Assembly (NCBI GenBank): GCA_041891055.1
Contig: CP169075.1
Location: forward strand, 52,001-116,000
Source of the DNA: Halorutilales archaeon Cl-col2-1
Lineage (GTDB): Archaea > Halobacteriota > Halobacteria > Halobacteriales > Afararchaeaceae
Direction of reading: 5' to 3'
Length of the DNA: 64,000 nt
Below the pieces are notes generated by a model. That model was not told the origin of the DNA. It made no database searches and worked only from the letters and a program-made list of their open reading frames with translations. Positions 1 to 42,187 of this stretch are shown here, one piece after another. The position numbers and the translations under genes are program-made. How positions within the stretch are numbered: the stretch's first letter is position 1; each line of letters begins with the position of its first letter.

Positions 1-2708
1 CTATCTGTCTTGTAATCGATTATCTCGACCTCATCGTCTGTTTCGTGGACAAGGTCGACAATGCCCGATATTACTACTTGTTCTTCATCTACTTGTAGTG
101 GTAGAGTGACCGGCTCCTCAACGTGTAATTCGTCCGATAGTCCATCGATTAAGTCTTTGACCCGTCGTTCGTCGGGATTAGATGGATCCACGTCTTCGCC
201 GAGTGCATATGCCTCTGCGAAGTCATGTACTTGAGAGCCAAAGTCCATCCCTCGGTCATTTGACTCGGCATCGATGCCTATCTCAGTCTCCATCTCTATC
301 TCTTCATCAGATTCTTTGAACACTTCATTGTTCATCAGCGAGTGGGGTGAGTGACCGGTCGGTTCATCCGGTGTCTCGACTGTGAATGGCAACTCTTTCT
401 GAACTATCTGTTCTTGACTGACTGGTTCAACATCAGGTTCTATATCCTCGAGGTCGAGGGGTAACTCCTCAAGGAATGTGTTTGGATCCTCCCCACCTGC
501 AAACAAGACGTGGCTCTCTGCACGTGTGATAGCGACATAGAGGAGGCGTCTTTCTTCGTCGTACTCAGGAGGGAGACAACGACGGATCACGTCATATCGC
601 CAGTTGTCATATATATGTGGATGTTCTCGGATTTCAGAGTATATCTTGCGCTGTCGGAGACCAACCGGATCCTGGTACTGAATTACGCTTGAATCACGTG
701 CTGAGGGCGGGAAACGTCCGCTGTTCATATTCGCCATGATTACTATCGGATACTCGAGACCTTTCGCAGCGTGAACTGTCTGGACAGTAACCGAATTATC
801 TCCAGCACTCGTATGCACATCGAGTATGCTACCGTTTTCTATCCCACGTTCGATGAAACGGATCAGATCGCCTCGGGTGAGAGTAGTCGAGTCATGGACT
901 GACTGAACTGTATCGAGTATGACATCGGCGTAGTCTCCTGTGAATCCGTACCGTTCGAAGACACGGCGTGTAACTGCTCCGACAGACTCTAGAGATCGGA
1001 GGGCATCTCGAAACTCGACCATCTCAACAGGATAAGACTCAGTCTCTAAGATGTGTTTTATTTCGTCGAACGTGTAGCCTGTCTTCTCTAACACGACTGC
1101 CCATCCACGGTCGGCATCCCGTTCAAGAATCCGGAGCCATGCAAGGAGAAGCTTTGCAGGGTCGGTTCGGAAGAGTTCGACCCCTCCATCATATGCCATC
1201 GGGAAACTGTATTCATCGGCAACTTCGAGGAGTTCACGACCGTAGTCCCGAGTTCGTGTGAAGACGGCAATGTCTTCGAAGTCAGGAGGTCGTGGCTCTC
1301 CATTCTCGTCTTCAACAGAATACTCCTCGTTACCCACAATCTCCTGTATTAGAGATAGGACGGCTTCGTGTTCGTCCTCGTTTTGGAAACCACTCAGAAC
1401 CGTGTTGTCGAACTCAGCGTTCGAGGATAATCCGACGACGTCCTCGATTTCTGTCTCGTCGACTTCTTCATTACTTGATGCTGGTGTTACGAGTGCTTCT
1501 TCAGAGAAGTCCAGAATAGTCTGGGTGGATCTGTAGTTCTCTTTGAGCGGTATCCGCGTGATTGAGTCAGTGTCAAAGTCGACCCTGTCTGTGTCGCTGT
1601 TGAGGTCGGTGCTGAACTCTTCGAGACGGTTCTTGAACTCCATTATATTCTGTACATCAGCATACTGGAAAGAGTAGATACTCTGTTTCCAGTCTCCGAC
1701 AACACAGAGATTATCAGTACGAGTCAGGAGTAATGCGAGCTTGAACTGAATCTCACTCGTGTCTTGAAACTCATCGACCATTACATACTCGAATCCGGCG
1801 TCTTCACGGAGCCTCGGCTCTTCACAGAGGAGGACGAAGGCGAAAAGCTGGAGGAAACCAAAGTTGAGATAGTTTCGGCTGAGTGCGAACTCTAAGTACT
1901 CGAAGTAGACGTCGTGGACAAACTCTTTGAGGTCATCTCTCTCCTCATTAAATACCTCGTCTGCGACGGTGTCGTCTAACTTCTTCGTTCCTCGACCTCC
2001 TCGTAACTCTTTCTTTGTTGGGGCATCAGGGAGATGGATCTTGTTCTGTTCGAAACGTCTTAGACTATCTCGAAGCTGGGACTGTTTTCGACCGTCGTTA
2101 CGTGGCTCGTTGACCTCGTCGAATTTCTCTTTGAAGGCTTCGAAATCCCCATCGAGATACTTTTCACCGTCACGGTACCAGCCGTCTACTGTTGGAAAGA
2201 CTCCCTTAGAAGCAAGTTCTTTGATCAGATCAAGTAGCTCACTTGGACTCGGTAGTATCCGATAGAACTCCGTATACTCGGGGTGATCCCCGCGGAACTG
2301 CCCGAAGAACTCCCGGAAAAGCTCAGCTTCGATGAGTTCGTCCTCGATGATACGTGTTGATCCCGTGATCCGTCCATCGATACCAAGATGAGTCGGAGCG
2401 GAGTAGCCATGTTCTCTAAGGATATCGTGGCAGTGGGAGTGGAAGGTTCGGATCGGAGCGTCGGCTAACTCACGCATCCGGTAGTCACTGTGTTCGACGA
2501 TCCTCTCTTTCATCTCTGCTGCAGCACTTCGAGTGAATGTCACCAGTAGTATATCCTCAGGATCAACTTCGGACTGGTTTACGATATTCGCATACCGACG
2601 TGTAATCGTGAATGTCTTCCCTGTACCGGGTCCGGCATCGACGAGATAGATCCCCTCGGTCTCGTTAATGAGCTGTTGCTGTCGTTGGTTGGGTGTCGGT
2701 TCAGTCAT
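1..2708 (-). CDS. UvrD/AddA(AdnB)-like SF1 helicase with C-terminal PD-(D/E)XK nuclease; 3' end runs off the window
   Basis: Manual translation from ATG at 2708: MTEPTPNQRQQQLINETEGIYLVDAGPGTGKT (Walker A); VMVDEFQDT, VGDWKQSIYSFQYA, TVHAAKGLEYP, EERRLLYVAITRA; GIVDLV..VEIIDYKT near base 1. Not in the ORF track because it lacks a stop in the window; overlaps the upstream gene stop by 8 bp. Confidence 0.92.
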   Translation of the reverse strand, partial: MTEPTPNQRQQQLINETEGIYLVDAGPGTGKTFTITRRYANIVNQSEVDPEDILLVTFTRSAAAEMKERIVEHSDYRMRELADAPIRTFHSHCHDILREHGYSAPTHLGIDGRITGSTRIIEDELIEAELFREFFGQFRGDHPEYTEFYRILPSPSELLDLIKELASKGVFPTVDGWYRDGEKYLDGDFEAFKEKFDEVNEPRNDGRKQSQLRDSLRRFEQNKIHLPDAPTKKELRGGRGTKKLDDTVADEVFNEERDDLKEFVHDVYFEYLEFALSRNYLNFGFLQLFAFVLLCEEPRLREDAGFEYVMVDEFQDTSEIQFKLALLLTRTDNLCVVGDWKQSIYSFQYADVQNIMEFKNRLEEFSTDLNSDTDRVDFDTDSITRIPLKENYRSTQTILDFSEEALVTPASSNEEVDETEIEDVVGLSSNAEFDNTVLSGFQNEDEHEAVLSLIQEIVGNEEYSVEDENGEPRPPDFEDIAVFTRTRDYGRELLEVADEYSFPMAYDGGVELFRTDPAKLLLAWLRILERDADRGWAVVLEKTGYTFDEIKHILETESYPVEMVEFRDALRSLESVGAVTRRVFERYGFTGDYADVILDTVQSVHDSTTLTRGDLIRFIERGIENGSILDVHTSAGDNSVTVQTVHAAKGLEYPIVIMANMNSGRFPPSARDSSVIQYQDPVGLRQRKIYSEIREHPHIYDNWRYDVIRRCLPPEYDEERRLLYVAITRAESHVLFAGGEDPNTFLEELPLDLEDIEPDVEPVSQEQIVQKELPFTVETPDEPTGHSPHSLMNNEVFKESDEEIEMETEIGIDAESNDRGMDFGSQVHDFAEAYALGEDVDPSNPDERRVKDLIDGLSDELHVEEPVTLPLQVDEEQVVISGIVDLVHETDDEVEIIDYKTD

Positions 2709-5313
2709 CTTTCTCCCCCTCCAGCAGTAGGTCACGGTTATCTATTCGACGGTAGTTCGGCTCTCCAGATAGACCTTCGACTGGAAAGCGTTCATCACCT
2801 GATCGGCGTCGATTGAGCTCTGTGAGACGCTCGTCGACGAAATCCTCGAACGCATCGAGATCTTCACGGAAGAAAGTCCGCTCCCGAATCTTGTTGAGTC
2901 TACGTATCGCCTGGTCACTTCCCTTCTCGGCGTCTACATCCTCAGATGTCCCTACGTCGACAGCCGTCGTGAACTCCTCGGCGAACTCAGACGAGCGGAG
3001 CTCGCTCTTCTCAGTTGTATCAGGGAAAGTTAGCTGGTTCATGATGTCACTGTATGATGGGTATCCAAGATCGTCGAAAGTCTCTTGACAGTCGTTGTAG
3101 CCATTGAGGAGCTCTTCATAGGCGTCACGAGATCCCACGTATTCGTCGAAGGTGAAAGGATAATAGGAGACTGTCGTAACTGCGTCCTCGATATTAGCCT
3201 TGCCTTCTATTACATCATCTATGGTGTCTAAGAAATGGAAGAAGGTGAAATCGAGAGGCTTGTTCGGCTGTATACTTCGGTAGTAGGTGAGATACACTGC
3301 TGCTTGGAAGTTCGGTGTATCTGCTGGGGAATCAACTGCCGCACGTTTGACAACTTGATATTCTGATTTCTTTCTCCCGCTTTTGTAATCGAGGAGGTGG
3401 TCTGGGGACTCAATTAGATCTATTTTGCCTTTGACACCGAGAGAACTATCCTCGAACCACCTCTCAGTAACTGTAGAGTCAATAGGTTGGTCGAAGTAGT
3501 TGGCGAAGAAATTCGATCCCCAACCCGATGTTGAACTGAGAAAACTGTCGGAGTCTGGGGAGTTACTGTCGAGATACTCAATTATATTCTCCAGACCGAT
3601 TTGGTATTTTCGTCGACGAAGAGTCTCATCTGCGGACGAAAAGAAGGGTTCTGCCTCGGTGATCATCACGTCTATGAGTTCATCCATATCGGTATTATCT
3701 ATGGTCTCGGGATGGTTCACGTAGAACTCAGCGAAGTCATGGAACAGGTTACCCTCGACGAACCTTTCTTGATCCGGTAAATCAATAAGCTGGTTGAAGA
3801 AGTAATCGCGCGGACTGTTGACATAGCTGTTTAGACTCGACTGACTTACTGTATCAACCGTTTCTGACTCCACATTGAGGCTATTGCGCTCGAATCCACC
3901 CATAGAGTCGTCTGAACGTTGAATGCGTTGATGCTTAACTGAGTTGAGGTCACTAAACCTCTCGAAGTCGTCTTCGAAGAGATCGCCGAAATAAAGACAC
4001 GGTGTAACCGGCTCACCTCCTGCGGAGTCCTGTACTAGGTAATACTGCTCGCTCCCGCTTTGGAGGAGACGTTGAAACCCACCGATATATCGTCCGAACT
4101 GAGACTGGGTATCAACCCAAGGACGTTGAGGTGCTGAGTGTGTCCAGTTCTGATCCATACCGATGTAGAACACTACAGGACGGTCGACGTAGTTGGACGA
4201 CTTCGCATCGGCTAGAAGGACTCCTTCATTTTCTCTGTCTACTGGAACCTCATATGTCTCTAAGTAGTAGGAAAGTTGATCGACATAATCGTCTGTGATC
4301 TCTTTCTCTGACAGACCGAGTTTATCGAGTTCTTCGCCGAAACGTTCAAGTTCAATACCGGTTTTCTCTGTATATTCATTGAGAGCGTCGTCAAATGTTC
4401 GTCTGTCTATGTTGTCACAGAAGCCGTGTAGCCAGTCGAGAACTGAAGACTCTACGGAAGCAAGACGCTTCTCATAGTCATCGAACGGGACATCGAGTCC
4501 CATCTGTGTAAGAACGGGAGCCACGTCCCCAACGGTCGTCTCAGAGCCTCGGAACGGTATCCTGAGTAACCGTACGAAAGCTCTGTGGTGAGGGTCATCG
4601 ATAAATCCGGGTCCACCATAGAACGGTATCTCAGCGGATTCAAATGCTGATTCGATAAGAGAGGAGTATTTGCTTGCACTATCGACTACGACGGCGACGT
4701 CGTCGGCATTCTGTGGATTAACTGTATCTAATAGTGCATTGACGATTTCAGCTGAAGATTCGAAGATATGGAAGGAAGGGTAGTTGAACTTTTCGTCAGT
4801 GAATAGTTCTATGCGGTCGACGTCCGGTGGCAGTATACTACGTTCGAGGTTCGTGAGCTGATCGTAGCCGACTACAGCTACAGACTGATTGTTTTCGACC
4901 TCGTAGTCGGTAAGCTGTCGGGATGTCGTCCTGAGTGAGGACATAATCTCTACAGCGTCTCGAGTCGCCTCGTTGATGTAGGCATCGTATTCGAAGATGG
5001 AGTCGAGACTGCCTTGGTGTTCCCAACACTGTAACACGTTACCGATAGCATACGAGATGGCTTCCCAGTCGTGTTTGGTCTCGTCGACTACTTCAAGAAA
5101 GGCTATACGGTCTTCTGCTTGTTCCCGTCTGCCAGCTGCGAGACGGCGTGGAGTAGTCGAGAAGGATCCAAACTGTGGACGGTCGAGACGTCGGTTGATC
5201 GCACTCGCAAAAGGGGCATCGGGAGTGATGACGAGGTCATAGTCTTTGACTTCTGAGTAGACTTCGTCGGCGTCTTTCGCTCGGTGAATTGGCACGGGTA
5301 TGTCCAAGCACAC
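2701..5313 (-). CDS. AddB/AdnA-like protein: degenerate helicase scaffold plus PD-(D/E)XK nuclease (exact start uncertain)
   Basis: 870 aa; SQSSLNSYVNSPRDYFF, GNLFHDFAE, GKIDLI..LLDYKSG, FQAAVY; no Walker A; coupled to the UvrD gene. Confidence 0.82.
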   Translation of the reverse strand: MCLDIPVPIHRAKDADEVYSEVKDYDLVITPDAPFASAINRRLDRPQFGSFSTTPRRLAAGRREQAEDRIAFLEVVDETKHDWEAISYAIGNVLQCWEHQGSLDSIFEYDAYINEATRDAVEIMSSLRTTSRQLTDYEVENNQSVAVVGYDQLTNLERSILPPDVDRIELFTDEKFNYPSFHIFESSAEIVNALLDTVNPQNADDVAVVVDSASKYSSLIESAFESAEIPFYGGPGFIDDPHHRAFVRLLRIPFRGSETTVGDVAPVLTQMGLDVPFDDYEKRLASVESSVLDWLHGFCDNIDRRTFDDALNEYTEKTGIELERFGEELDKLGLSEKEITDDYVDQLSYYLETYEVPVDRENEGVLLADAKSSNYVDRPVVFYIGMDQNWTHSAPQRPWVDTQSQFGRYIGGFQRLLQSGSEQYYLVQDSAGGEPVTPCLYFGDLFEDDFERFSDLNSVKHQRIQRSDDSMGGFERNSLNVESETVDTVSQSSLNSYVNSPRDYFFNQLIDLPDQERFVEGNLFHDFAEFYVNHPETIDNTDMDELIDVMITEAEPFFSSADETLRRRKYQIGLENIIEYLDSNSPDSDSFLSSTSGWGSNFFANYFDQPIDSTVTERWFEDSSLGVKGKIDLIESPDHLLDYKSGRKKSEYQVVKRAAVDSPADTPNFQAAVYLTYYRSIQPNKPLDFTFFHFLDTIDDVIEGKANIEDAVTTVSYYPFTFDEYVGSRDAYEELLNGYNDCQETFDDLGYPSYSDIMNQLTFPDTTEKSELRSSEFAEEFTTAVDVGTSEDVDAEKGSDQAIRRLNKIRERTFFREDLDAFEDFVDERLTELNRRRSGDERFPVEGLSGEPNYRRIDNRDLLLEGEKDD

Positions 5314-5778: not shown

Positions 5779-5851
5779 GTTTGTTACTATTAACTTTGAG
5801 TGGTATAACTCTTTGCACCGGTGTTAATCAGTATTAACAGTCTTTAATAAT

Positions 5852-5970
5852 AGCTAACCAACATTTTCGAAATATTGTCTAGAGATGTTGGTTAGCTAGG
5901 GAGAGAAATACACTCCAAAGCGGGTGTGGTGGTGTCGGTGTTAAGCTGGGTCAGGTGACTCAGGTTAACA
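5852..5970. repeat. ~120-bp composite repeat, copy 1 (site A 5852-5897, CTCCARAGCGG motif, palindrome B 5939-5970)
   Basis: Near-identical direct repeat of 6741-6860. Confidence 0.9.
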
Positions 5971-5976
5971 GTTAGT

Positions 5977-6251
5977 AAGTCTCCGTCCTCAAGGAGTCGT
6001 TCGCAAATCTTTGATTTGCGACTGTAGCCAATCAGAGATTGGCATACCTACGAGAACGGAGTTCTCGGGACGGGAGCAAATCTGTGATTTGCGAGCCTGC
6101 GAGAGCAAAGCTCTCGGGACGTTGACGAATCGCAGAGCGATTCGTTCGCACACCAGAACGCCTTGCGTTCTGGGGACGTTCGTCAAACTTTGTTTGACGT
6201 GCCAACAAGATCGGAGATCTTGTGACGGGGCTTGACCCCGAGGCGGTTGAC
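5977..6251 (+). mobile_element. Non-autonomous IS200/IS605 derivative filled with a tandem array of twin-hairpin micro-elements
   Basis: Left-end-like CCGTCCTCAAGGAGT (cf. 10030-10042); right end CGGGGCTTGACCCCGAGGCGGTTGAC identical to the end of the tnpB element at 60934; nine triloop hairpins between. Confidence 0.75.
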
Positions 6252-6438
6252 TTTTTCCTACTCCCGTTTTACCGTAAGCAAATATATTCTTGGGAGGGTC
6301 ACAGTTCATCACAGGCTGGAGAATATCAACATACTCAGAGATCTCCTCGTCTCTTTCTTCGATGTCTTCCGGCTCATAGTCTTCTCGAAGTGGGGTCTCA
6401 GTACGGAAAATCGATTCGTCCGGCTCAAAGAGTCCCAT
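6252..6438 (-). pseudogene. orc1: orc1/cdc6 N-terminal fragment truncated at Walker A
   Basis: MGLFEPDESIFRTETPLREDYEPEDIEERDEEI...NIFAYGKTGVGK aligns with the intact Orc1 at 45635, then reads into the IS605 end. Confidence 0.88.
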
Positions 6439-6724: not shown

Positions 6725-6740
6725 AGTCTTTGATTTGCTG

Positions 6741-6860
6741 AACTAACCAACATTTTCGGAGAATTGTCTAGAGATGTTGGTTAGCTAGGGAGAAAAATAC
6801 ACTCCAAAGCAGGTGTGGTGGTCGTTGGTGTTAAGCTGGGTCAGGTGACTCAGGTTAACA
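6741..6860. repeat. ~120-bp composite repeat, copy 2 (site A 6741-6786, palindrome B 6829-6860)
   Basis: Direct repeat of 5852-5970. Confidence 0.9.
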
Positions 6861-7415: not shown

Positions 7416-9909
7416 ATGTCCGAAGACCTGTCTTCTATTTACGAAGATGTCCGTGACATAGGCTTTTATGCAGGTCAGATAGAATTAGAGAAGACTATTG
7501 AGGGGAATAGTCCCACTTTCGGTGACACTGAAGATGTAGTTAACGAGGTAGGCAAAGAAGTCCTTGACTCCATCGGGATAGACCGCCTGTACAAACATCA
7601 AACAGAAGCGATAGATGCTGTAAACTCAGGGGACAACATAGTAATAGACACACCAACTGCATCGGGTAAGACGATGACCTATGCTATCCCCATGATAGAA
7701 GAAGGTTATCAGGACAACACGAAGTCGATCTACATAGCCCCTCAGAACTCTCTAGTCAATGATCAGACAGAATCAATACGGGAGATGACTTCTTCTATAT
7801 CACCTTCTCCCTTTGATTCTGACTCACAGAATCTTGATAGATTCTCAGATAATAATCTGCCGCCAGGTTCTGTTTCGGTAGCAAGGTATACCGGACAGTT
7901 ATCCCAGACCGAGAAACGGAATGTGAGAAATGAAGAGCCCGAGATCCTGCTGAGTAATCCGGAGATGCTCCACATGTCAGTTCTGCCTTACGCTGAAACA
8001 CACTGGCGGTGGCTTTTTGAGAATCTCAGATACGTGGTTCTCGACGAAGTTCATAGATACCGAGGATACTTTGGGATACATCTATCACTGATACTTCGAC
8101 GTCTAAAGAGAAAAGCCGAGACATTCGGAAGGGATCTGCAGTTTCTATGTGCCTCCGCTACTATACAGAACCCTATAGAACATGCTAGCAGAGTAACTGG
8201 AGAGGATGATGATTCATTTACTCATATCTCCGAGGACTACAGTGCCTCTGGAGACAAACACTGGATGTTCTGGCAACCTCCGGAGAAAGATTCTAAGTAC
8301 ACTAATTTTGACTCTGAATCGGGAGACAGTATTAGTAACAGAAAGTCAAGCCACTCGGAAGCCACCGATATCTTCAGCTACTTTGTGATTGATAGATACC
8401 AGACTCTTGTGTTTACCCGAGCACGTCAAGGTGCAGAATATTATTCTATGGTATCGCAGAGAAGACTACAGGAGATGGGGCATAATGACCTCGCAGAAAA
8501 AGTAACTGCGTACGAAGGAGCGTTAACTGACGACAGACGGGAGGAGATAGAAGAAGGTCTAAAATCTGGTGACACATTAGGTGTCTGGAGTACGAATGCA
8601 CTGGAGCTTGGGGTTGATATAGGCGGTCTAGACGTTGTTATCTTAGACGGATATCCTAAGACCGTCATGTCTACGTTTCAACGAGCTGGTAGAGCTGGAC
8701 GAGGTAAAGACGACAGCGCAGTCGTTTTAGTTGCAGGTAATGACTCTCTCGATCAGTATATCCTCAGAAACCCCGACGATCTCTTCGAGGGCGATCCAGA
8801 GAGAGCTATGGTTAACCCCGCAAACGAGAAGATACTAAAAGACCATCTCGCCTGTGCAGCTTCTGAAAATCCTCTCGAGCTTACTGATAGAACATACTTC
8901 CCCAGTAACTTCATCGATATTGTAGAGGAGATGATCGAAGAAGGACGTCTTGAAGAGAAAGGTACGAAGTCAGAGTCAGAGTCAGGGTCAGGGTCAGGGT
9001 CAGGGTCAGATAGTAGCCACACTAAATTAGAAACCACAGAGGATGGCCCTCACTATTCGATGGCTATCCGAGACATAGACAGTCAGATGATACAGATAGT
9101 CGACAAAACAACGGGGTCGAATATAGCTGAGCTCCAGAGAAGAGACGCTTACCGTGATGCTCATAGAGGCGCCTATTATACCCACCAAGATCAGAATTAC
9201 AAAGTTGAGAACCTCGACTTGAAGGAGAGGCCGTGCCGAAGTAGTCCCTACTAACACTGACCAGATCACACAGACTGTGAGTGAGAAGCAAATAGACATA
9301 CTAAAGAGTAGAAATGGTAAGGTTCTAACTCTTGATACAGGAGATGAAGACGCATATGTCTGGTTCGCTGACGTAAGGGTCAAAGAGTCTTTTCAGAAGT
9401 ATCTCATCCGTGATAGAAGGACTCAGGAGGTATTAGAGGAGTATCCTCTCGATCTGCCGGATATAGAGGTAGAGACTGAAGCTTTCTATATCACTTTACC
9501 CGACAGTCTCAGACGAGATCTGATGGCTGGTATAGAAAGTGGTTCTGAAGATGACGATAAATACCTCGGAGGTCTACACGCTGCTGAACATGGTCTAATA
9601 GCTATGACTCCTAGAGAGGTTCTGTGTGATAGAAATGACCTCGGAGGACTATCTATATCACGTCACGACGGGACTAACGAAGCTACAATATTTGTACACG
9701 AAGGGATAGAAGGTGGTGTAGGTATATGTAAGGAAGCTTTTGAGTCTATCGAGGATCTGATACAGAAGTCTCTTGATATGATAACGACGTGTGGATGTGA
9801 GTCGGGCTGTCCCTCGTGTGTCTACAGTCCTAAGTGTGGTAATAACAACGAGACTATAGATAAAGAAATGTCAGTAGAGATTTTAGAGAAGCTTGCTGGG
9901 AGTCTGTGA
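7416..9909 (+). pseudogene. Hrq1/MrfA(YprA)-type DEAH helicase with DUF1998 Zn domain, split by a +1 frameshift near 9228
   Basis: TPTASGKT, LDEVHRYRG, STNALELGVDIG, QRAGRAGR in 7416-9254; LHAAEHGLI and CGCESGCPSCVYSPKC in 9277-9909; removing one base in GAG-A-GGC joins LKE-GRAEVVPTNTD. Confidence 0.85.
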
Positions 9910-9968
9910 GAGAGATTGTCTCTAGATCTCCAGAGCGGTAGTGTGGCCTCTATTATTTCAACTTGTGC

Positions 9969-10478
9969 AGGCGGAGTCCCCGTTCAGAAATCTCAGATTT
10001 CTGAGCCCGCGAGATCGGAGATCTCGGGACGTCCTCAAGGAGTGTTGCGAATCAGAGATTCGCATACGTATGAAAATCTCCGATTTTCAACACACCGCAG
10101 TCCGCTTACGCGGACAAGAAGCGCAGTAGGGCGGGGAGGAAGCCGTATACTTATTGGACTTCGGATATTACCTATAAGTACGTCCATCCGAGCCAACAGT
10201 TGTTCGGATGGATGGGCACCAGTCAACGTCTCCAGATCTTTGATCTGGATGGCTCGGAAATCGGAGATTTCCGAACGTGCCCCGAAGTCCGGAACAATGA
10301 CCCTGAGTGCGGTTCGACCGCCCACGCAGTACGGAACGGTACTGCGGTCGAGGGAGAGAACACGGACAAGCCCCGTTCGTGAATCGAAGATTCACGAGCA
10401 TGCTGAGGGAACCTCAGCATACGCCCTCCACGAGCGAGTGGGCGCAAGCCCCGAGCGAAGTAGGGCGGGGTTGTTGAC
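9969..10478 (+). mobile_element. Non-autonomous IS200/IS605 element with several inserted twin-hairpin units
   Basis: Left-end hairpin GGCGGAGTCCCCG..TCCTCAAGGAG..AGTAGGGCGGGGAGGAAGCC; right end AGCCCCG..CCCT..AGTAGGGCGGGGTTGTTGAC; no credible ORF. Confidence 0.7.
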
Positions 10479-16485: not shown

Positions 16486-16768
16486 GGCTCTGGTGAATCA
16501 CTAGACTGCGTTGGATCAAGCCACTAATTCAAAGGAGATGAAGCGGGAAGTCTCCAATGTCATGTCCAAAATTTCCCGTTTTGGAACGCTTGCGTTCCAA
16601 CATATGTGAATCGAAGATTTTCAGCTGACGAAGCTATGCTTCGTGAAGCCGTGCGTGCGCGTGCCTGGTACAGAGAATTTCGTGAACTCGTCCTGATCTG
16701 CTCTGTCTATAATATCAAACATGTCGTAAAACAGTAAATCAAGCTACGTATGGCGATTCACCAAAGCC
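16486..16768 (+). mobile_element. Internally deleted IS5-family derivative (MITE) of the element at 19430-20508
   Basis: TIRs GGCTCTGGTGAATC / GATTCACCAAAGCC; both arms align to the longer copy. Confidence 0.85.
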
Positions 16769-17942: not shown

Positions 17943-18381
17943 AGCGCGAGTTCCCCGCCCTTCCGAAAACCGCAGGTTTTCGGCTTTCGCAAATCTTTGA
18001 TTTGCGTCAACACCGTGGGCGGGGGTGAAGCGCGTGCGCTTGGCCACGTCCCTGCTTTTAAGTATCGGGACGCCCTACTATGATTTGGAACCCCACGTTA
18101 TCGGCCTCGCAAAACCCGCGCACCTGACGGGTAAGACGCGGTGCGCCGGGCCTGTGTCGCGCCCACGTGAAGGGGCGGACGCCCACGGACACACCCGCCA
18201 CGGCAGCAACAGACGACCTCTGTTGCGGTGGCATTCCCGGTGTGTTCGGGTGTTACCGGTTCCACGCGAGTCCCCGCTGGGGACGAGCGCGGGCGGAATT
18301 AAATTCGCCACCGGTCGTTTCGCTGGGCTCGTGCCAGAGACCACAGCGAAGCCACGGGCCACCGCGCCCGTGGTACTTCAC
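17943..18381 (+). mobile_element. Non-autonomous IS605-type element enclosing a TATA box and ~300 nt of GC-rich structured sequence (possible stand-alone omegaRNA)
   Basis: Left hairpin GCGAGTTCCCCGCCC..GGGCGGGGGTGAAGCGCG, TTTTAAGTA at ~18055, right end GAAGCCACGGGC..GCCCGTGGTACTTCAC. Confidence 0.55.
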
Positions 18382-19429: not shown

Positions 19430-20508
19430 GGCTTTGGTGAATCGCCATACGTAACTTGATTTACTGTTTTACGGCATGTTTGATGTTGTAGACAGAGCAG
19501 ATCAGGACGAGTTCACGAAACTCTCTGTACCAGGCACGCGCACGCACGGCTTCACGAAGCATAGCTTCGTTAGCTGAAAATCTTCGATTTTAAGCAGTGC
19601 CGAGCGTGCGCTTGATGTTTGAGAAGACGGTTTCAGACATGGATCTTTGACCATAGAGAGACCCATCGACCCTGGTGTCGCAAATCTGAGATTTGCGTAC
19701 ATCCAAAAATCAGAGATTTTTGAATATGCTGTGTACCTGATCGATGGGTCGGAACTCACGGTGTTTGGTGAGTTGTCTTACGTCTTCTTCTCGTAATTTT
19801 TCACGTAGTTTCATCCAGTCATAGCCTTTGTCGGCAGCGAGGGTATGCAGGTCACCTGCGTTCCGCAGTGCGACCTGCAAGCCGAGCTGAGTATCATGGC
19901 GTTTCTCAGTCGTGCAGTGAAGGTCAAGGACTGCTTGAGTTTCTGTGTCGACGAGGGCTGTAGCTTTGAGTGTCTGGACACGGTAATCCGTCCTACGGCA
20001 GTAGTGTTTGCTAGCGTTTTCTCGGTCGAAGTAAGTAGAGTCCATAGCAGTGTGACCGGTGTTGTCATGTAGTTCCGAGGAGAGACGGAGAAGTACTCTC
20101 CATACACCCATCTCTATCCTATCGAATGCTTTGACTAGGGTTGAATGGTGAGGGAGATCGTCCTCTTCGAGGCCGATCTCCTCAAGGATTCTTGGCATCT
20201 CGCTCAACAGATCGAGTGCTTCTCGGTAGGATTTCTCCAAGTAAATCCGTAGACAGTGGAGAGAAACGATGGCGTAATCCGCGAAGCCGCCACCCTGCTC
20301 TGGGGCGGCGGCTTCGCTCCGACCACCAACAGCGTTTTTAGCTAATGTCACGACTCTATCAGTGAAGTGCTGTGAATCGAAGATTCACATGCGTTGGAAC
20401 GCTTGCGTTCCAAAACGGGAGATTTTGGACATGTCACCGAAAACTTCCCGCTTCATCTCCTTTGCATTAGTGGCTTAATCCAACGCAGTCTAGTGATTCA
20501 CTAGAGCC
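19430..20508 (-). mobile_element. IS5-family element; transposase pseudogene (19461-20432) interrupted by three 45-51 bp twin-hairpin insertions
   Basis: TIRs; MSKISR|FTDRVVTLAKNA, AMDSTYFDR, LAADKGYDW, ETVFSNIKRTLG; insertions at ~19551-19595, ~19678-19728, ~20367-20415. Confidence 0.9.
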
Positions 20509-20696: not shown

Positions 20697-20824
20697 TTTG
20701 TCCGGTCGACAGTCTATTCCACTTCAACGAAATCTGCTGTTCCAGCCAACCCCAGAATTGCTACAACCTCTACTTTCACCCTGGTTAGCGTGCCTTTTTG
20801 AAACTACAACCAAGTGTTAGATAT

Positions 20825-21355
20825 ATGGACGACAAGAGTAAGAATCAGCTCGGTGGTGGGGCGATCGGCGGTGCCCTTGGGGCAGCAGCAGGCGGCCCGG
20901 CCGGTGCAGTCGTCGGTGCAACACTTGGCGGGTGGCTGTTGGGTCGAGAGAGCGATCACAACGACACTCTCCGCAAGACGTATTCGGCAGTCAAAGAAGC
21001 GACGAGTGACGAAGCGCATCTTTACGTCTCCCATATCGACCCAGACGGAGCCGCATCGACGAGTCCTCAGGGGGTAATCGACGGGGTCAACGGGGAACCC
21101 GATATCATTTCGATTGATTCCACGAGCGCGAACTTGATCGTCGAGGTAGAGACGATGGAGGCTATCGCCGAAAACGGGAGTCACGCACTGAACCAGCTTC
21201 AGGACTACCGGACGTCGGGATTCAAACGAGTTCTTGTTGTCCCTGAAGAGGGGATAGACACTGCAATCGAGTGGGTAGAAGCACACGAAGACCAAGGTGC
21301 CTTGGAGGGGTCACTCACCGTCGCGTCTCCCGAGCGGATCGCAAATGTCCTCTAA
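20825..21355 (+). CDS. Glycine-zipper membrane segment plus PD-(D/E)XK-like nuclease domain
   Basis: GGGAIGGALGAAAGGPAGAVVGATLGG; EPDII..LIVEVET..ALNQLQDY; ATG at 20825 preferred. Confidence 0.65.
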   Translation: MDDKSKNQLGGGAIGGALGAAAGGPAGAVVGATLGGWLLGRESDHNDTLRKTYSAVKEATSDEAHLYVSHIDPDGAASTSPQGVIDGVNGEPDIISIDSTSANLIVEVETMEAIAENGSHALNQLQDYRTSGFKRVLVVPEEGIDTAIEWVEAHEDQGALEGSLTVASPERIANVL

Positions 21356-21364
21356 TCACCCGAG

Positions 21365-24300
21365 CTACGACGACCTGGTGCGGTTCTCAATGAATTCCTG
21401 CGCCCATTGATTGAGGAACTCCACTGTCTCTGACCAGTCCTCAACTGAGCCACCGTCCGTAAGCTGGACGAGCGACGTGTCCGCAGCGTCTTCTTCGGTC
21501 CACCCGGTCACAACCCACGGCTTCTCAGCGGTTCCGACTATTTCTCCGTCAGAATTCGCAGTACAGGCGGATTGGGTGAGATTCAACCGATCCGACGTTT
21601 CGACGAGCGTCGCTGCTAACCAGTTGAACAACGGACTCCCTGGAGCGAGGAATCGGAGTGAGGGGTACTCGTCAGCCGTATCGGGGTCGAAGGTTACCCC
21701 TATTCCTTGGTGCTGATTTGCGACGCTCGCTGCGAGGGTATCCTCACTTTCCTCCGCTGTGATGGGAGCGTCCCCCGGATGCTGAAGGCAGTAGATGAAT
21801 TCTGCATCTTCCGGTTCAGTGAGGTCGAATTCGAAATCCAGGTGCGACAGTAGATCAAACTGAATCCCCGCCTCGGTGAGCGTTTCGTTCTCCAAAAAGA
21901 CTCCCATGGCGGCGTCTACGGTAAAGATGGGGTCTCGGTTTTCACTCGGGTTCCCGACCTTTCCGAGATCAGGATGGGAATAGGTTTCCCAAGCGTCCAG
22001 ACGCGCTTCTTGGATAACCTGTTCACGTAGTGGTCGGTCGCTGTCGACCTCTGCGAGTGAATCCTTGAGCTCTACTGGGTCGTCCTCACCTTGCTGTTCC
22101 TCGATATCTTGGTCGATATCTCGTTCGAGTTCTTCATACTCCTCGCTGTCCGCCTTCGCCCCTTCTACCATCGTCGCCTCTCGAATCTTCGACCCGACAC
22201 TGGATAGAATCGGCTGCATATCGCCAACGACGTACTCAAACAGACCGATCCGGTCGTCTAGTCGGTCATAGATATCTGATTCGACGGTGTCTTCGTAGCT
22301 GTAGTTGAGGATGTAGACGTCGTCGTATTCCTGACCGATGCGGTCGATACGTCCGATCCGCTGCTCCACTCGCATCGGATTCCACGGGAGGTCATAGTTG
22401 ATCATCGCACCGCATTCCTGCAGGTTCAGCCCCTCACTTGCAGAGTCCGTACATACGAGAATATCGACCTCTCCGTCGTTGTCGGAGAATTCTCGCTTGA
22501 CACGTTCCTTCCCCACGTTTCGCCAGGCGTCTGCTTCTTCGTCGTACATCTCGCCGCCGTCGCCCGAGTAACAGGCGATATTCTCGCCGTACTTCCACCG
22601 GAGTTGCTGGCGGACGAAGTGCATCGTGTCTTTGTACTGCGTGAAGACGATGATTCGACTCCGTCCCTTCCGATCGAGCATGTCGAGGTCCTCGTACAGC
22701 TGATCCATCTTCGGGTCGTCATCGACCTGCTTGACCTCCTGGATGAACGACTCCAGTTCCTCGATCTCCTCCTTGAGAAGATTGATCCCCTCGTCAGTAA
22801 GACTCGGTGCGAGTTCGGTGAGATCGACGTTCAGCACGTCCTCGCCGGCATCCTCCAACTCGGCGATCTCGTCTTCACTGTATTCGCTAAGTGCGTCTAG
22901 GGCCGCCTGTCGATCCTCATCCTGGTCGTCCCGAATTCGTTTTCGCCGTTCGAGTACCCTCCGCTGCGTTCGAAGTTTCTCCAACCGCGTAGAGAGACTC
23001 TGTGAAATCGCGTATACACTGCTAGTAAGCCGCTGGCGATACGTCGTCATCACGAACCCAATGGCGCGGGCTTCCGTCTCTGTTGACTGCTGTGCCTTCT
23101 TGTAGAAGGTTCGGGTGTATTCGTCGATTCGATCATACACCCGACGGGTTTGCTCGTTGAGTTCGATACGTCGCCGCTCGGGTTTTCTGGTCGGGACTGT
23201 TTCTTCGAGCAGCCCTGCTTTGCGATATTTCCTAAGGGTATCCCGGGTATTGCGGTGGATACAGGCATCGACTGGGGTTGCCCACGAAAGTACGTCTTGG
23301 AGTACCTTCCAGCCGTCCTCGCTGAGTTCGTCGAGGGCGTCGAGACGGTCGCTTCGTGAGGAAATAACCATCTCCTCATTCAGGACTGATTCCGGATACA
23401 GCAGCCGTTTGAGCTTGGTATCTTCATCCGCTCCGAACGGATCGATTTGCTCCTCAATCGCGGCGTCTACCTTCCGTCGGTAGTCGTCGTACTCTTGGCC
23501 ATACCCTCGTGCCAAATTACACGCTTGGAGAAGCCGCTGTTTCGCGACGCCTCGACCTTGGTCCTCCAGCCCGAGTTCGTCGACGATCCCCTCGAGGACA
23601 ACGTCTGCGTACTCTATCGAGGAGTTGAACCGATCCTGAAATGTCCCATTGAGAGTCGCCTGTGACGGATCACTCGATGTCCGGGATGAGAGATCGGCTC
23701 CGCCTTCGATAACGGTCGACAGCGCCTGGCGGGTCTCGAAGAATTCGACAAATAGGTCGCGATCATCCCACGCCTCGGGAATATCGAGGAGGGTCAGGAG
23801 ATCGTAGAGTTCGCGATGGTGGAGCTGCATCGGGGTCGCAGTGAGCAGGTAGTAGCAGTGAGTGTGATCGCGGAGCCGTTCGAGGAGATTGTAGAAGTTA
23901 CTCCCACGACGTGCGTTGTGTGACTCGTCGACGACGACTGCGTCCCAGACGCCTTCACGGCCGTCCGGGTTGCGTCCGCGACAGCTTGCCGGGATGTCGT
24001 CCCTCGTCCGGGCGGTTCCGTCGTCAGCGGGCGCGACCTGGTCCCACCGGCCCGTGAGTCGCGCTGTGTGCCAGGACATGATGATGACAGTCGGCGTCGG
24101 GTCATCCTTCCGAGTGTGTGCGAACCGCCACAGCGGGCTGTTCGTCCATGCCTCGTTCCGCCGATCCGCATCGATGTCCAGGTCACCCGTCCCCGGGACT
24201 GGATGCTCTTGGCCGAAGGAATCGATGAAGGCATAATCGTAGTCACTCCCTCGATCGTACCGATAGGCGTTGATGTTGAACTTCTCCCAGAGTTCTTCTT

Positions 24301-25294
24301 GCCACTGGACGGCGAGACTCGCTGGTGTGAGAACGAGTGAGTTCTCGAGTTCGCCAGTCAGTCCGAGGCGAGAGAGTGTGAGGCCGACCTCGATAGTTTT
24401 CCCGAGACCTACCTCGTCGCAAAGGAGATAGGAGTTCGGATACGTGTTGACTGCCGTATCGGAGACGACTCGCTGGTGTGGCCACGGATCGATCGTGCTC
24501 GCTTCCTCGGCGAGTTGGAGGCCACCGGGGGCTTGTGCCCCGTCAGCGAGGATCCACCCTTTGTCGCCGTCAGTCGGGGCCTTTGGTTCGCGGAGTTTCT
24601 CGACGATTTGGGAGACTTCGATGTCGTTGTCGGGGGCCTTCCAGTCGATGAGCTCCTCTTTCAGGGCCTCCGGAAGATCGTAGACGTCGACGTAGGCGTG
24701 CTCGTCTTGCCACAGCTGCTTAAACGACTCTCGGTCGCCTTCGACGTAGGGGGCTTGACCGTCGTCCCACGAGCGGTGGACTTTGAACCGCTCGTAGTTC
24801 CGCGTCCAGCCGCCGGCCGTCTCGTTGATGCTCCCTTCGAACGAGATCCAGTTCCCGTCCTCATCTCGGAAGATGCCTACTTTGGGGTGGAAGATACCCC
24901 ACTCCCCGCGGCTGGGAACCGCGATCTTGAGCTCGAGTCGATCCTCCCGAAGGAGCCAGGCGAGCAGCTGGAGCTGCTGATCGAGCGTTTCGTCATCCAA
25001 CCCCGTCAGGTTCTCGTCGAGGTCGTCGGCGAGTGCTTCCAGCACAGGCCGATCCTTCGGCTGAAGCTGTGCGCCGACGATGAGTCGCATTCGGCCGTCG
25101 TTTTCGACGAGTGCCTCGATTCCGTTCCCAGCAGCAGCGAGAGAACCGCTATCGAAGTAGCCTGCAATCCGGTCGTACTGGATGCTCCGTTCGAGCGCCG
25201 GGACGTAGAACTCCTTGATTAGATGAGCTGCGTCGTTGCTGGGCTGGCTTTCGTAGATAGACTGCCAGTCGTAGTCACGGAGGGACCTAGCCAT
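21365..25294 (-). CDS. PLD-nuclease - SNF2 helicase subunit of a DUF499/DUF1156 restriction-like system
   Basis: FHPKVGIF..GSINET (HKD-like), CDEVGLGKT, VDESHNAR, TATPMQ, SEGLNLQ, PWNPMRVEQRIGRIDRIGQ; start MARSLRDYDW at 25294. Confidence 0.9.
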   Translation of the reverse strand: MARSLRDYDWQSIYESQPSNDAAHLIKEFYVPALERSIQYDRIAGYFDSGSLAAAGNGIEALVENDGRMRLIVGAQLQPKDRPVLEALADDLDENLTGLDDETLDQQLQLLAWLLREDRLELKIAVPSRGEWGIFHPKVGIFRDEDGNWISFEGSINETAGGWTRNYERFKVHRSWDDGQAPYVEGDRESFKQLWQDEHAYVDVYDLPEALKEELIDWKAPDNDIEVSQIVEKLREPKAPTDGDKGWILADGAQAPGGLQLAEEASTIDPWPHQRVVSDTAVNTYPNSYLLCDEVGLGKTIEVGLTLSRLGLTGELENSLVLTPASLAVQWQEELWEKFNINAYRYDRGSDYDYAFIDSFGQEHPVPGTGDLDIDADRRNEAWTNSPLWRFAHTRKDDPTPTVIIMSWHTARLTGRWDQVAPADDGTARTRDDIPASCRGRNPDGREGVWDAVVVDESHNARRGSNFYNLLERLRDHTHCYYLLTATPMQLHHRELYDLLTLLDIPEAWDDRDLFVEFFETRQALSTVIEGGADLSSRTSSDPSQATLNGTFQDRFNSSIEYADVVLEGIVDELGLEDQGRGVAKQRLLQACNLARGYGQEYDDYRRKVDAAIEEQIDPFGADEDTKLKRLLYPESVLNEEMVISSRSDRLDALDELSEDGWKVLQDVLSWATPVDACIHRNTRDTLRKYRKAGLLEETVPTRKPERRRIELNEQTRRVYDRIDEYTRTFYKKAQQSTETEARAIGFVMTTYRQRLTSSVYAISQSLSTRLEKLRTQRRVLERRKRIRDDQDEDRQAALDALSEYSEDEIAELEDAGEDVLNVDLTELAPSLTDEGINLLKEEIEELESFIQEVKQVDDDPKMDQLYEDLDMLDRKGRSRIIVFTQYKDTMHFVRQQLRWKYGENIACYSGDGGEMYDEEADAWRNVGKERVKREFSDNDGEVDILVCTDSASEGLNLQECGAMINYDLPWNPMRVEQRIGRIDRIGQEYDDVYILNYSYEDTVESDIYDRLDDRIGLFEYVVGDMQPILSSVGSKIREATMVEGAKADSEEYEELERDIDQDIEEQQGEDDPVELKDSLAEVDSDRPLREQVIQEARLDAWETYSHPDLGKVGNPSENRDPIFTVDAAMGVFLENETLTEAGIQFDLLSHLDFEFDLTEPEDAEFIYCLQHPGDAPITAEESEDTLAASVANQHQGIGVTFDPDTADEYPSLRFLAPGSPLFNWLAATLVETSDRLNLTQSACTANSDGEIVGTAEKPWVVTGWTEEDAADTSLVQLTDGGSVEDWSETVEFLNQWAQEFIENRTRSS

Positions 25295-42070: not shown

Positions 42071-42187
42071 TCAACCGGGATTGCTTCCCACGCTGCTTGA
42101 ACTGCTTTTGCGTATTTCGATCCCACAAGACCGAAGGTCTTGTGAACGCCGTAAACGGCGGGATTCTCTCCTCGCAGAAAGATAGCT
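42071..42187 (-). mobile_element. Small IS200/IS605 end remnant with a hairpin insertion
   Basis: GTCAACC end; ATCC..CGCCGTAAACGGCGGGATT hairpin interrupted by CACAAGACC-GAA-GGTCTTGTG. Confidence 0.5.

Follow-up and report, generated by a model that had tools for sequence, protein, structure and literature searches.

Separable twin-hairpin insertion units as the probable content of a hairpin array in the right end of a TnpB element from Halorutilales archaeon Cl-col2-1

A stretch of 64,000 nt from Halorutilales archaeon Cl-col2-1 (GenBank assembly GCA_041891055.1, contig CP169075.1, positions 52,001 to 116,000 of the forward strand; the whole stretch is called the window in the following) carries a dense row of perfect hairpins at positions 6001-6223, next to a truncated orc1/cdc6 paralog. 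The question raised by this locus is what these hairpins are and how they came to be stacked there. An earlier interpretation made from the letters of the DNA (hereafter the sequence-only reading) had proposed structure-recognised micro-transposons that parasitise insertion sequence (IS) elements. The present analysis indicates that the array very probably consists of separable twin-hairpin insertion units nested in the right end of an IS, a judgement that concerns the identity of the units and is tied to no particular enzyme. Positions without a prefix refer to the window, C2 denotes the contig holding it and C1 the chromosome of the source genome (G000). Comparisons were made with a syntenic genome of the same genus (G001, ~92-96% nucleotide identity) and with an outgroup genome (G011).

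Nine inverted repeats without mismatches, their stems 7-9 bp long and their arms separated by exactly 3 nt, are located at 6001-6021, 6027-6043, 6051-6067, 6076-6092, 6100-6116, 6125-6145, 6153-6173, 6181-6199 and 6205-6223, as the sequence-only reading had described. A C-G pair closes all nine loops. The cGNAg loops, which had been put forward for their exceptional stability, are a minority, since GGA occurs in two of the nine loops and the others read TTT, AGA, TGT, AAA, AGA, CTT and TTT. Folding of 5976-6251 as single-stranded DNA gave -80.6 kcal/mol, compared with -41.6 +/- 3.8 kcal/mol for 200 shuffled sequences (z = -10.3, 0/200 as good). Hairpins with a stem of at least 7 bp and a loop of 3 nt number 38 in the whole window and 59 on C2, where first-order-preserving shuffles contained 9.3 on average, and 454 on C1 versus 208 in the shuffles; a C-G closure is found in 307 of these 454 hairpins and an ATC-NNN-GAT core in 158. 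The additional hairpins noticed earlier in the window were recovered as well, at 9984-10089, 10231-10274, 10377-10420, 16628-16644, 17963-18006, 19554-19722, 20371-20389, 42124-42144 and 55509-55601.

The nine hairpins parse as four abutting head-to-tail units on the plus strand, each located behind a CG, starting with TT (degenerate in unit 2) and ending in (G)GACG, in line with the ~50-nt twin-hairpin units bounded by CG that had been proposed. Unit 1 (6000-6072, 73 nt) contains three hairpins (TCGCAAATC, GCCAATC and CGAGAAC) between a TT start and a GGACG end; 5987-6070 is 91.7% identical to C1:683912-683994, and the three-hairpin form is also present on C2 of the congener. Unit 2 (6073-6121, 49 nt) combines GCAAATC and CGAGAGC hairpins, has a degenerate 5′ end (GGAG for TTCG) and ends in GGACG, with 6076-6121 being 93.5% identical to a lone unit in the right end of a tnpB element (C1:682501-682546). 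Unit 3 (6122-6178) represents a 57-nt type with ACGAATCGC and CCAGAACGC hairpins, runs from TTG to GGGGACG and is 89.8% identical to C1:1804877-1804935. Unit 4 (6179-6227, 49 nt) runs from TTCG to GACG with CGTCAAAC and ACAAGATC hairpins, and identical 49-nt copies are found at C1:35553 and C1:1208166, each preceded by a different unit. A covariance model (R1), built from 24 units of 49 nt without their flanks, matched units 1, 2 and 4 at 6025-6072, 6076-6121 and 6179-6227 with 42.5, 42.1 and 69.6 bits, respectively.

On its left side the array is preceded by the 5′ arm of the long hairpin of an IS605-type right end (5976-5999, plus strand, ...GTCCTCAAGGAGTCG), which ends in the CG at 5998-5999. 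The flank ctcaaggagtcg is likewise found directly before units at C1:840210 and C1:1930222, in both cases downstream of a tnpB remnant, and BLAST searches matched 5976-6016 to C1:1930254-1930294 and C1:1827246-1827273. This arm belongs to a right-end-type hairpin of another subfamily, with no adjacent tnpB. On the right side, 6228-6251 (plus strand) comprises the 3′ part of the host right-end hairpin together with its terminus (GGGCTTGACCCCGAGGCGGTTGAC, terminus GGCGGTTGAC). The sequence 6224-6251 is identical in 28/28 positions to C1:682477-682504 and in 26/26 positions to C2:112934-112959, both of which are located directly downstream of an intact tnpB; the assignment of this segment to an IS605 right end had thus been correct.

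Immediately beyond this terminus lies the 5′ fragment of an orc1/cdc6 paralog (6252-6438, minus strand), cut after ~62 codons by the IS right end. Its ortholog in the congener (G001:C77, L096:484-1719, minus strand) is an intact open reading frame (ORF) of 411 aa with Cdc6_lid, Cdc6_C and AAA domains, and the DNA to the right of 6251 continues leftwards there as the intact gene; the remainder of the truncated gene was not found in the source genome. Since the gene of the congener runs uninterrupted across this point, 6251 is where an IS200/IS605-type element that disrupted the orc1 paralog has its outer end. At its boundary, the IS (...GGTTGAC) adjoins TTTTTCC, the heptamer that in the intact gene comes after ...GACTTCAC; this junction suggests a host IS target of the TTCAC type. 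The array is the unit-stuffed right end of a decayed TnpB (IS1341-type, IS200/IS605 family) element.

A scan of the source genome with the grammar of these units returned 47 non-redundant units, 26 of which measure 49 nt, 12 48 nt, four 57 nt, two 56 nt and three other lengths, with 46-57 nt as the overall span of such units. Each is built from two perfect triloop hairpins with stems of 7-10 bp and an AATC/GATT core, joined by a GC(C)-type linker; hairpin 1 begins 1-2 nt from the 5′ end of the unit and hairpin 2 stops 3-5 nt from its 3′ end. The ends, TT(C)... and ...(G)ACG, are complementary at the first base only, so that units are devoid of terminal inverted repeats. Structure rather than sequence had been supposed to be conserved. 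The first part of this supposition stands, as the fold is kept while the sequences differ, whereas an alignment of 37 distinct units from the source genome and its congener has 13 invariant columns out of 50 (the TTC start, A7, C10, G14, T17, G21, the GC linker and the ACG end). With hairpin 1 and the termini conserved in sequence, recognition by structure alone is not implied.

In the source genome, R1 gave 120 matches at E<=0.01 and 94 at E<1e-4, corresponding to about 100 unit copies. TT starts 78 of these 94 matches and ACG ends 67. CG precedes 52 of the 76 array-first or solitary matches and TG or CA eight more, while the CG dinucleotide frequency of C1 is 0.10; GACG forms the flank in 19 of the 76 cases, some of which may be ends of units missed by R1, and the cases are therefore not all independent. 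The two hairpins of one unit differ in sequence and their types assort in many combinations, and an identical 49-nt unit is located at C1:78755 and C1:915038 between flanks that are unlike on both sides. This sharing of a unit between unrelated flanks and the variety of hairpin combinations point to modular exchange. All 26 matches of a 20-base hairpin-1 pattern in the source genome sit in compact units, and no long element bounded by hairpin 1 and hairpin 2 was found among them.

Empty alleles, on which the sequence-only reading had staked its proposal beforehand, are present at both paralogous and orthologous sites. Among paralogs, the host right-end hairpin of the array, CCTCGGGG-CTTGA-CCCCGAGG, was found with 0, 1, 2 and 4 units, with the insertion point CCTCG^GGGCTTGACCCCGAGG. 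It is empty (GACAAGCCTCG^GGGCTTGACCCCGAGGCGGTTGAC) at 60934-60970 (C2:112934-112970, minus strand) in a complete element whose tnpB encodes 409 aa (ORF 60983-62212, minus strand), holds one 49-nt unit between CCTCG and GGG at C1:682501-682549 and two units each at C1:1208166-1208263 and C1:35553-35650, and contains all four units in the window array. The same applies to a second right-end type, ...caacgagcg^aacccgtc..., which at one fixed point holds no unit (tnpB C2:39649), one (C1:1161310) or two (C1:1018376 and C1:1843763). A left-end hairpin, CCCCGACC-CTTGA-GGTCGGGG, is empty upstream of the tnpB at C2:113106 and filled with two or six hairpins elsewhere. Insertion points lie within stems and loops of right-end and left-end hairpins. 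A right-end motif search allowing one mismatch (CTGACAAGCC) gave 96 matches; most of them were genic and due to chance, and the analysis was restricted to the small number of genuine right ends. At least one unit is located between the stop codon and the right-end terminus in 10 of 29 tnpB elements, and of the 15 units found on the right-end side of a tnpB gene, 13 have the same orientation as that gene. In the predicted RNA fold of a right end with one unit, the outer stem of the host is kept and the two unit hairpins form extra branches of a four-way junction; self-folding insertions could, according to this model, be of the kind that the host hairpin tolerates.

Other units of the window show the same placement. 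A gene-less PATE-like derivative of an IS605-type element (~9960-10478) holds a 49-nt unit in its left part (9983-10031, plus strand, R1 72.2 bits), a second one at 10227-10275 (minus strand, 71.7 bits) and a 48-nt unit at 10376-10423 (plus strand) after CCCCG in its right-end long hairpin, the terminus of which (...GGGGTTGTTGAC) is reached at 10478. The right end of a tnpB element with its ORF end at 55640 contains two abutting units in opposite orientation (55508-55602, minus strand). A separate 211-nt segment is a GC-rich hairpin (CCCCGCCC...GGGCGGGG) that accommodates six triloop hairpins in its loop; three copies, 98% identical, are located at C1:979411-979620, directly behind the sole tnpA gene of the source genome, at C1:533432-533642 and at C2:51514-51724, and a two-hairpin version is found at 17963-18006.

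At orthologous sites, a four-unit array (C1:259771-259965), two units at C1:1509358-1509449, a single unit in a tnpB right end (C1:1843459-1843506), a solitary 48-nt unit in an M24 peptidase gene (C1:1621354-1621401) and a two-unit block (C1:1634084-1634179) of the source genome are all absent from the congener. Conversely, C1:1509880 (AAGCG^TTCG) is empty in the source genome and carries three extra units in the congener. Neither the congener nor the outgroup has the 51-nt unit that lies in a type I phosphodiesterase gene (C1:1205611-1205661) of the source genome, and this unit is therefore an insertion in the lineage of the source genome. The comparison shows insertion after the split of the two congeneric species. 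The unit in the methionyl-tRNA synthetase (MetRS) gene is common to both and missing from the outgroup, with a net alignment gap of 39 nt, and a unit in ThiN is likewise common to the two congeners. Such comparisons had been proposed as a check for 2-bp target duplications; every filled/empty pair does fit a CG duplication and fits equally well a unit-borne CG without any duplication. Taken together, the units behave as modules that are gained and lost in whole-unit steps at fixed borders, and they are preferentially located in IS605-type end hairpins and behind units that are already in place.

Contigs from salt-lake metagenomes diverge from the window at unit borders (6120/6122 and 6178/6179) and at 6251, and unit 3 has by far the highest summed depth in them. 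In two runs of one study, contigs join 6117 to 6224 without units 3 and 4. As this joint has only 26 nt on its short side, it may stem from a paralogous right end rather than from an allele of this locus, and it shows only that such a form exists.

The hairpins had been thought to occur only inside IS or miniature inverted-repeat transposable element (MITE) DNA. This holds for the window. Genome-wide, however, units also lie in frame in housekeeping genes and are thus not confined to IS DNA. Approximately 15 of the 94 R1 matches at E<1e-4 fall within stop-free frames of at least 200 aa, and unit-bearing genes confirmed by Pfam encode MetRS, a type I phosphodiesterase, a GT4 glycosyltransferase, an M24 peptidase and ThiN. 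The in-frame inserts add 16-17 residues (HQSKIDEPVNQRLTDG, HQSSIDEPADQRLTDD, AHQSLIDVPVNQRLTDA, IRESEDSRAHENESSRDT), e.g., HQSxIDxPVNQRLTD. Unit hairpins stay perfect in IS ends and decay in genes, and units landing in ordinary genes survive only in frame. The region of the GT4 gene had no match in G001 or G011. For the M24 peptidase, the alignment to the PDB skips query residues 165-209 and did not place the 16-residue insert. Three tnpB ORFs (435, 411 and 455 aa) each contain a stretch whose opposite strand scores as a unit, at a distance of ~520 nt from the zinc-ribbon motif (C1:129992-130039, 219450-219497 and 1844293-1844340). In frame, this stretch encodes TSRSGSFDGSQIEDLRT; either a tnpB subfamily inherited it from an old unit insertion, or one of the hairpin types originated from it.

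How might such units arrive and accumulate? In the proposed mechanism, a unit would land directly behind a CG, inside the stem or loop of an IS605-type end hairpin, and would fold on itself, leaving the outer stem of the host hairpin able to pair. Its terminal ACG recreates the CG context, as had been foreseen for the terminal CG, so that the next unit could land behind it and head-to-tail arrays would result. A spread on single-stranded DNA is suggested by three features, namely palindromes without mismatches, a strand bias at right ends and a preference for targets that form hairpins, and an activity supplied in trans would mobilise the units. The Y1 HUH transposase TnpA of the genome is the first candidate for this activity, a possible though rather doubtful one. 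The source genome contains one intact Y1_Tnp gene (C1:979038-979397), which neighbours a tnpB in an order resembling IS605 and has a hairpin filled with units on just one of its sides; the congener has four matches. A mobilising activity of some other kind, or one that awaits identification, has a chance approaching but not reaching even.

Several observations weigh against inserted units mobilised in this way. No enzyme is tied to the units. Canonical TnpA of the IS608 type uses guide and cleavage tetranucleotides at a distance from the hairpin foot, with guide bases 5′ of each hairpin reading the cleavage sites, and binds similar hairpins at both ends. The borders of the units are 1-5 nt away from the hairpin feet, and only 1-2 nt away from hairpin 1, which leaves no space for such guide tetranucleotides, and a unit's two hairpins do not resemble one another. 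The rule for host IS ends also differs, as these end in ...TTGAC and are inserted behind ...TTCAC in the orc1 gene of the congener. Phylogenetic profiling for a mobilising HUH enzyme, which the sequence-only reading had suggested, did not single out TnpA: among 41 genomes of the order, 13 of the 16 TnpA-positive ones are without the hairpin-1 pattern, and G020 and G035 (~78% complete) contain units and no Y1_Tnp match, with G000, G001 and G011 having both. Stem pairing amounts to 96.6% and double changes in 10 of 17 pairs indicate compensation, although these statistics are partly circular because units were chosen for perfect hairpins. Junctions are not always canonical, reading CAT at C1:259771 and ATA at C1:1205611 and having no CG at C1:1509449. 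For most filled/empty pairs gain and loss are indistinguishable, polarity having been settled once by the outgroup, and as unit borders repeat CG/TT, 2-5 nt of microhomology could equally drive deletion. At two sites the congener is shorter by precisely the length of one unit and retains an imperfect hairpin of chimeric make-up at the joint, indicating loss by recombination between the conserved cores of neighbouring hairpins.

Some of these observations lead to a serious rival for how the units spread, namely enzyme-free copying, in which a replication fork would stall at the foot of a hairpin and the nascent ...ACG end would switch template via 2-5 nt of microhomology (CG, ACGTT), copy units and return. 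Template switching at hairpin-stalled forks via ACG/TT microhomology would spread units, shuffle hairpins 1 and 2 and delete units, and we consider it unlikely without being negligible. It would account for the CG/TT repeats at the borders with microhomology at every junction, for whole-unit deletions with chimeric hairpins, for the combinatorial assortment of hairpins 1 and 2 and for the few extra or altered bases at some junctions, and it is in line with the lack of both terminal inverted repeats and a clear target-site duplication and with the poor match between TnpA presence and unit presence. On the other hand, ~100 copies with sharply conserved ends look like the product of site-specific processing, the patchy yet, where present, multi-copy family fits lineage-specific activity better than a universal replication error, and the orientation bias at right ends (13/15) argues in the same direction.

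The separable insertion units favoured here also have to be set against the haloarchaeal elements already described. PATEs of Haloquadratum walsbyi and other haloarchaea are characterised in the main text of Dyall-Smith et al. (2011, PMC3119063) by the absence of terminal inverted repeats, by near-terminal palindromes, by no evident target duplication and by sizes down to 52 bp. Each unit might accordingly be a 'terminal-only' PATE, i.e., a nested IS605-type element that lost its core by recombination between near-terminal palindromes and left ~50 bp of fused ends. The same text describes 52-bp forms derived from HqIRS46 and ISHwa23 as well as nested IS605/PATE insertions (PMC3119063), and the similar size and the location of units in IS605 ends would fit. 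Nevertheless, this origin is quite improbable. All 26 hairpin-1 matches lie in compact units and no long element with these ends was found in the source genome; a core deletion between identical palindromes leaves one palindrome and not two different ones; and each 48-51-nt in-frame gene insertion since the split from the congener would require a full IS insertion followed by precise core loss. Moreover, the hairpins of the units, with their triloops and AATC/GATT core, are unlike those at the host ends, which have GC-rich 8-bp stems and 4-5-nt loops (CCTCGGGG-CTTGA-CCCCGAGG, CCCGCG.CTTTAGGCGCGGG), and units run from TT behind CG to ACG whereas the host IS end in ...TTGAC.

Least probable of all is the view that the hairpins are native functional parts of IS ends (TnpA binding sites or stem-loops of the TnpB guide RNA, or omega RNA) varying in number by duplication and recombination, which would agree with the 10 of 29 tnpB elements carrying mostly co-oriented units between stop and terminus, with a 57-nt unit within the right end of the ISfinder-named ISHvo18 and with hairpins perfect in IS ends and decayed in genes, yet which is largely refuted by the empty sites, as the same right-end hairpins occur intact without units, solitary units with orthologous empty sites lie in protein-coding genes and in intergenic DNA outside IS, and neighbouring units are unrelated in stem sequence and hence not tandem duplications.

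Having been described as separable insertion units, the elements can be compared with known systems. Like PATEs, they are short, non-coding, too short for a transposase and equipped with palindromes near both termini in the absence of terminal inverted repeats; they are associated with IS200/IS605 elements, and strain-specific insertions are also described for PATEs (PMC3119063). They differ in that PATE palindromes match those of IS605-type elements and PATEs have a conserved targeting oligonucleotide of 4-5 nt according to the main text of PMC3119063, while units share only CG (52/76), sit inside PATE/IS605 hairpins, form head-to-tail arrays and have perfect hairpins with 3-nt loops and AATC/GATT. 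This separation from PATE and HqIRS types is a provisional one, based on the main-text description in PMC3119063. SMR-A (HqIRS42/43/55) is described there as a frequent element of ~110 bp with prominent inverted terminal repeats that inserts in near-terminal palindromes of PATEs and IS605-type transposons and whose mobilisation is given as unknown. The units likewise insert within near-terminal hairpins of PATE-like and IS605-type elements, but measure 48-57 nt, are without inverted terminal repeats, contain two different hairpins, stack in tandem and also occur in genes. They combine the build of a PATE with the target habit of SMR-A and fail one defining feature of each. The kind to which the units belong is not new, since PATE and SMR-A had established for Haloquadratum that mobile repeats of short, palindromic build insert in IS605 ends (PMC3119063); the sequence-only reading had itself pointed to short mobile repeats of Haloquadratum. 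Passages of later papers treat PATEs as fused IS ends encoding RNAs (PMC4615843, PMC10544981, PMC10055086), and those passages hold no description of twin-triloop units or tandem arrays. A literature search for twin or tandem hairpin elements in haloarchaea, covering mostly open-access journals, yielded nothing beyond PATE and SMR.

Similarities also exist to systems outside this group. The 'peel and paste' elements of the IS200/IS605 family (IS608, ISDra2), mobilised by Y1 HUH TnpA, are characterised in passages of two papers by subterminal hairpins, strand polarity, a short specific target and neither terminal inverted repeats nor target-site duplications (PMC4615843, PMC10055086). The units resemble them in having hairpins at both ends, strand polarity, no terminal inverted repeats, a short specific neighbouring sequence and a tnpA in the genome, and depart from them in their context of only CG/ACG, in ends located at the hairpin feet and in two hairpins unlike each other. 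Bacterial REP, BIME and REPIN sequences with RAYT are short palindromes recognised as hairpins that form composite arrays and are presumably served by a Y1 HUH enzyme in trans (PMC2817692, PMC3116915). REP/BIME sequences alternate in orientation and are extragenic, in contrast to the head-to-tail units found mostly in IS ends and also in genes, and the RAYT gene stands alone, flanked by REPs, whereas the sole Y1 gene of the source genome lies beside tnpB. Rickettsia palindromic elements (RPEs) are portrayed in a part of PMC10969869 as palindromic selfish DNA inserted in frame in unrelated housekeeping genes, to which a conserved peptide is added. Genic units do the same, but RPEs are bacterial and ~100-150 bp long, as compared with 48-51 nt (16-17 residues) for units in genes, and the main habitat of the units is IS ends. 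A classification as MITE was rejected, as there are no terminal inverted repeats and at most an ambiguous CG as target duplication.

The unit family is patchy across Halobacteriales. Among the 41 genomes of the order, the hairpin-1 pattern occurs 26 times in the source genome, 27 times in the congener and 4, 3 and 6 times in three others, with no occurrence in the remaining 36, and the reversed pattern used as control is absent from all 41. R1 searches over 151 genomes of the order, with the best 40 candidates per genome scored, gave matches at E<=1e-6 in at least 15 genomes. They are multi-copy in the own family (two of two genomes), in family f11 (at least six of nine) and in genus g20 (at least three of four). 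A survey of 185,579 species, each represented by one genome, recovered exact copies of the hairpin-1 pattern in 31 stretches, namely from Halobacteriales, metagenome-assembled genomes labelled 'Euryarchaeota' and Halorutilus salinus, together with single matches in four Vibrio, one Terriglobia and one Vagococcus that are probably due to chance, although those in Vibrio may instead belong to attC-type repeats of integrons. No Haloquadratum record of this survey contained the pattern, and R1 had no match in the Haloquadratum plasmid PL47, a weak negative given that this replicon measures only 47 kb.

The 57-nt type represented by unit 3 has a much wider distribution and matched 32 plasmid records from haloarchaea. 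On pHV3 of Haloferax volcanii it is located within the right-end hairpin of ISHvo18 (tnpA and tnpB), between cccgcg and actttaggcgcggg, and a right-end hairpin of the ISHvo18 type is empty in the source genome downstream of the tnpB at C1:464757. On another contig, the congener carries at least seven consecutive units (G001:C2:95437-95720, L098), including the three-hairpin variant and the 57-nt type in the order seen in the window.

Two further explanations for a repeat array at this position were rejected. Replication-origin repeats, suggested by the adjacent orc1 fragment, do not apply since the array is part of an IS end and adjoins the gene where it is truncated, and neither a CRISPR nor an integron attC array applies since neighbouring units differ in sequence and there are no spacers or cassettes. 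An Rfam scan of the whole window at gathering thresholds returned nothing at the array, its only hits being the CRISPR-DR24 repeats of a genuine CRISPR array at 47526-49624 (minus strand; 32 identical 30-nt repeats, 47.8 bits each, period ~67 nt). The array region is flanked by direct copies of a ~120-bp non-coding repeat at 5845-5970 and 6740-6860, which contains a hairpin with a 14-bp stem (TAGCTAACCAACAT...ATGTTGGTTAGCTA) and a second imperfect palindrome. More copies are located at C2:39181, C2:44484, C2:71379, C2:96192, C1:1302931 and C1:1326744 and in the congener, and by its appearance the repeat is of the MITE/SMR type and not a member of the twin-hairpin family. Genes nearby encode an 870-aa protein with a PD-(D/E)XK nuclease domain (2701-5313, minus strand), a helicase with DEAD, Helicase_C and WHD_HRQ1 domains (7416-9254, plus strand) and a protein with an MrfA Zn-binding domain (9277-9909, plus strand), which together look like a nucleic-acid-processing or defence-type cluster. 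Further downstream, 4.2 kb (20772-25000; a helicase-related and a hypothetical protein) are 98% identical to the Haloglomus halophilum plasmid NZ_CP101168.1, which suggests recent horizontal exchange between distant haloarchaeal genera; the best match of the contig to plasmid records covers 17%.

Regarding the meaning of these findings, it is conceivable, although we advance it only tentatively, that the units constitute an unrecognised class of 48-49 bp mobile elements with two self-folding hairpins and an insertion chemistry of their own at CG next to or within hairpin-forming DNA, which are mainly parasitic in the TnpB guide-RNA-encoding ends, where the host hairpin would survive thanks to their self-folding, and occasionally act as donors of a 16-residue peptide to housekeeping proteins. 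If this were true and the mobiliser were a Y1 HUH enzyme of unconventional geometry or something unknown, the units would represent a new mode of transposition and an archaeal counterpart of REP/RAYT and of the Rickettsia RPEs. With their 48-49 bp they would be one of the smallest kinds of DNA module for which there is evidence that insertion is recent, and two hairpins plus ~5 conserved terminal bases would set a lower bound for a mobile element. In studied TnpB systems, the stretch between the tnpB stop codon and the right end encodes the scaffold of the guide (omega) RNA. Units within this stretch may disable, modulate or be tolerated by RNA-guided TnpB nucleases, and would constitute a natural experiment on the insertions that a TnpB scaffold accepts, which is relevant to the engineering of compact TnpB editors. 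The units furthermore show how haloarchaeal IS ends turn into mosaics, complicating the annotation of IS boundaries, with ISHvo18 carrying one unit. Finally, through the peptides that they add in frame to essential enzymes such as MetRS, the units are a source of protein variation in archaea.

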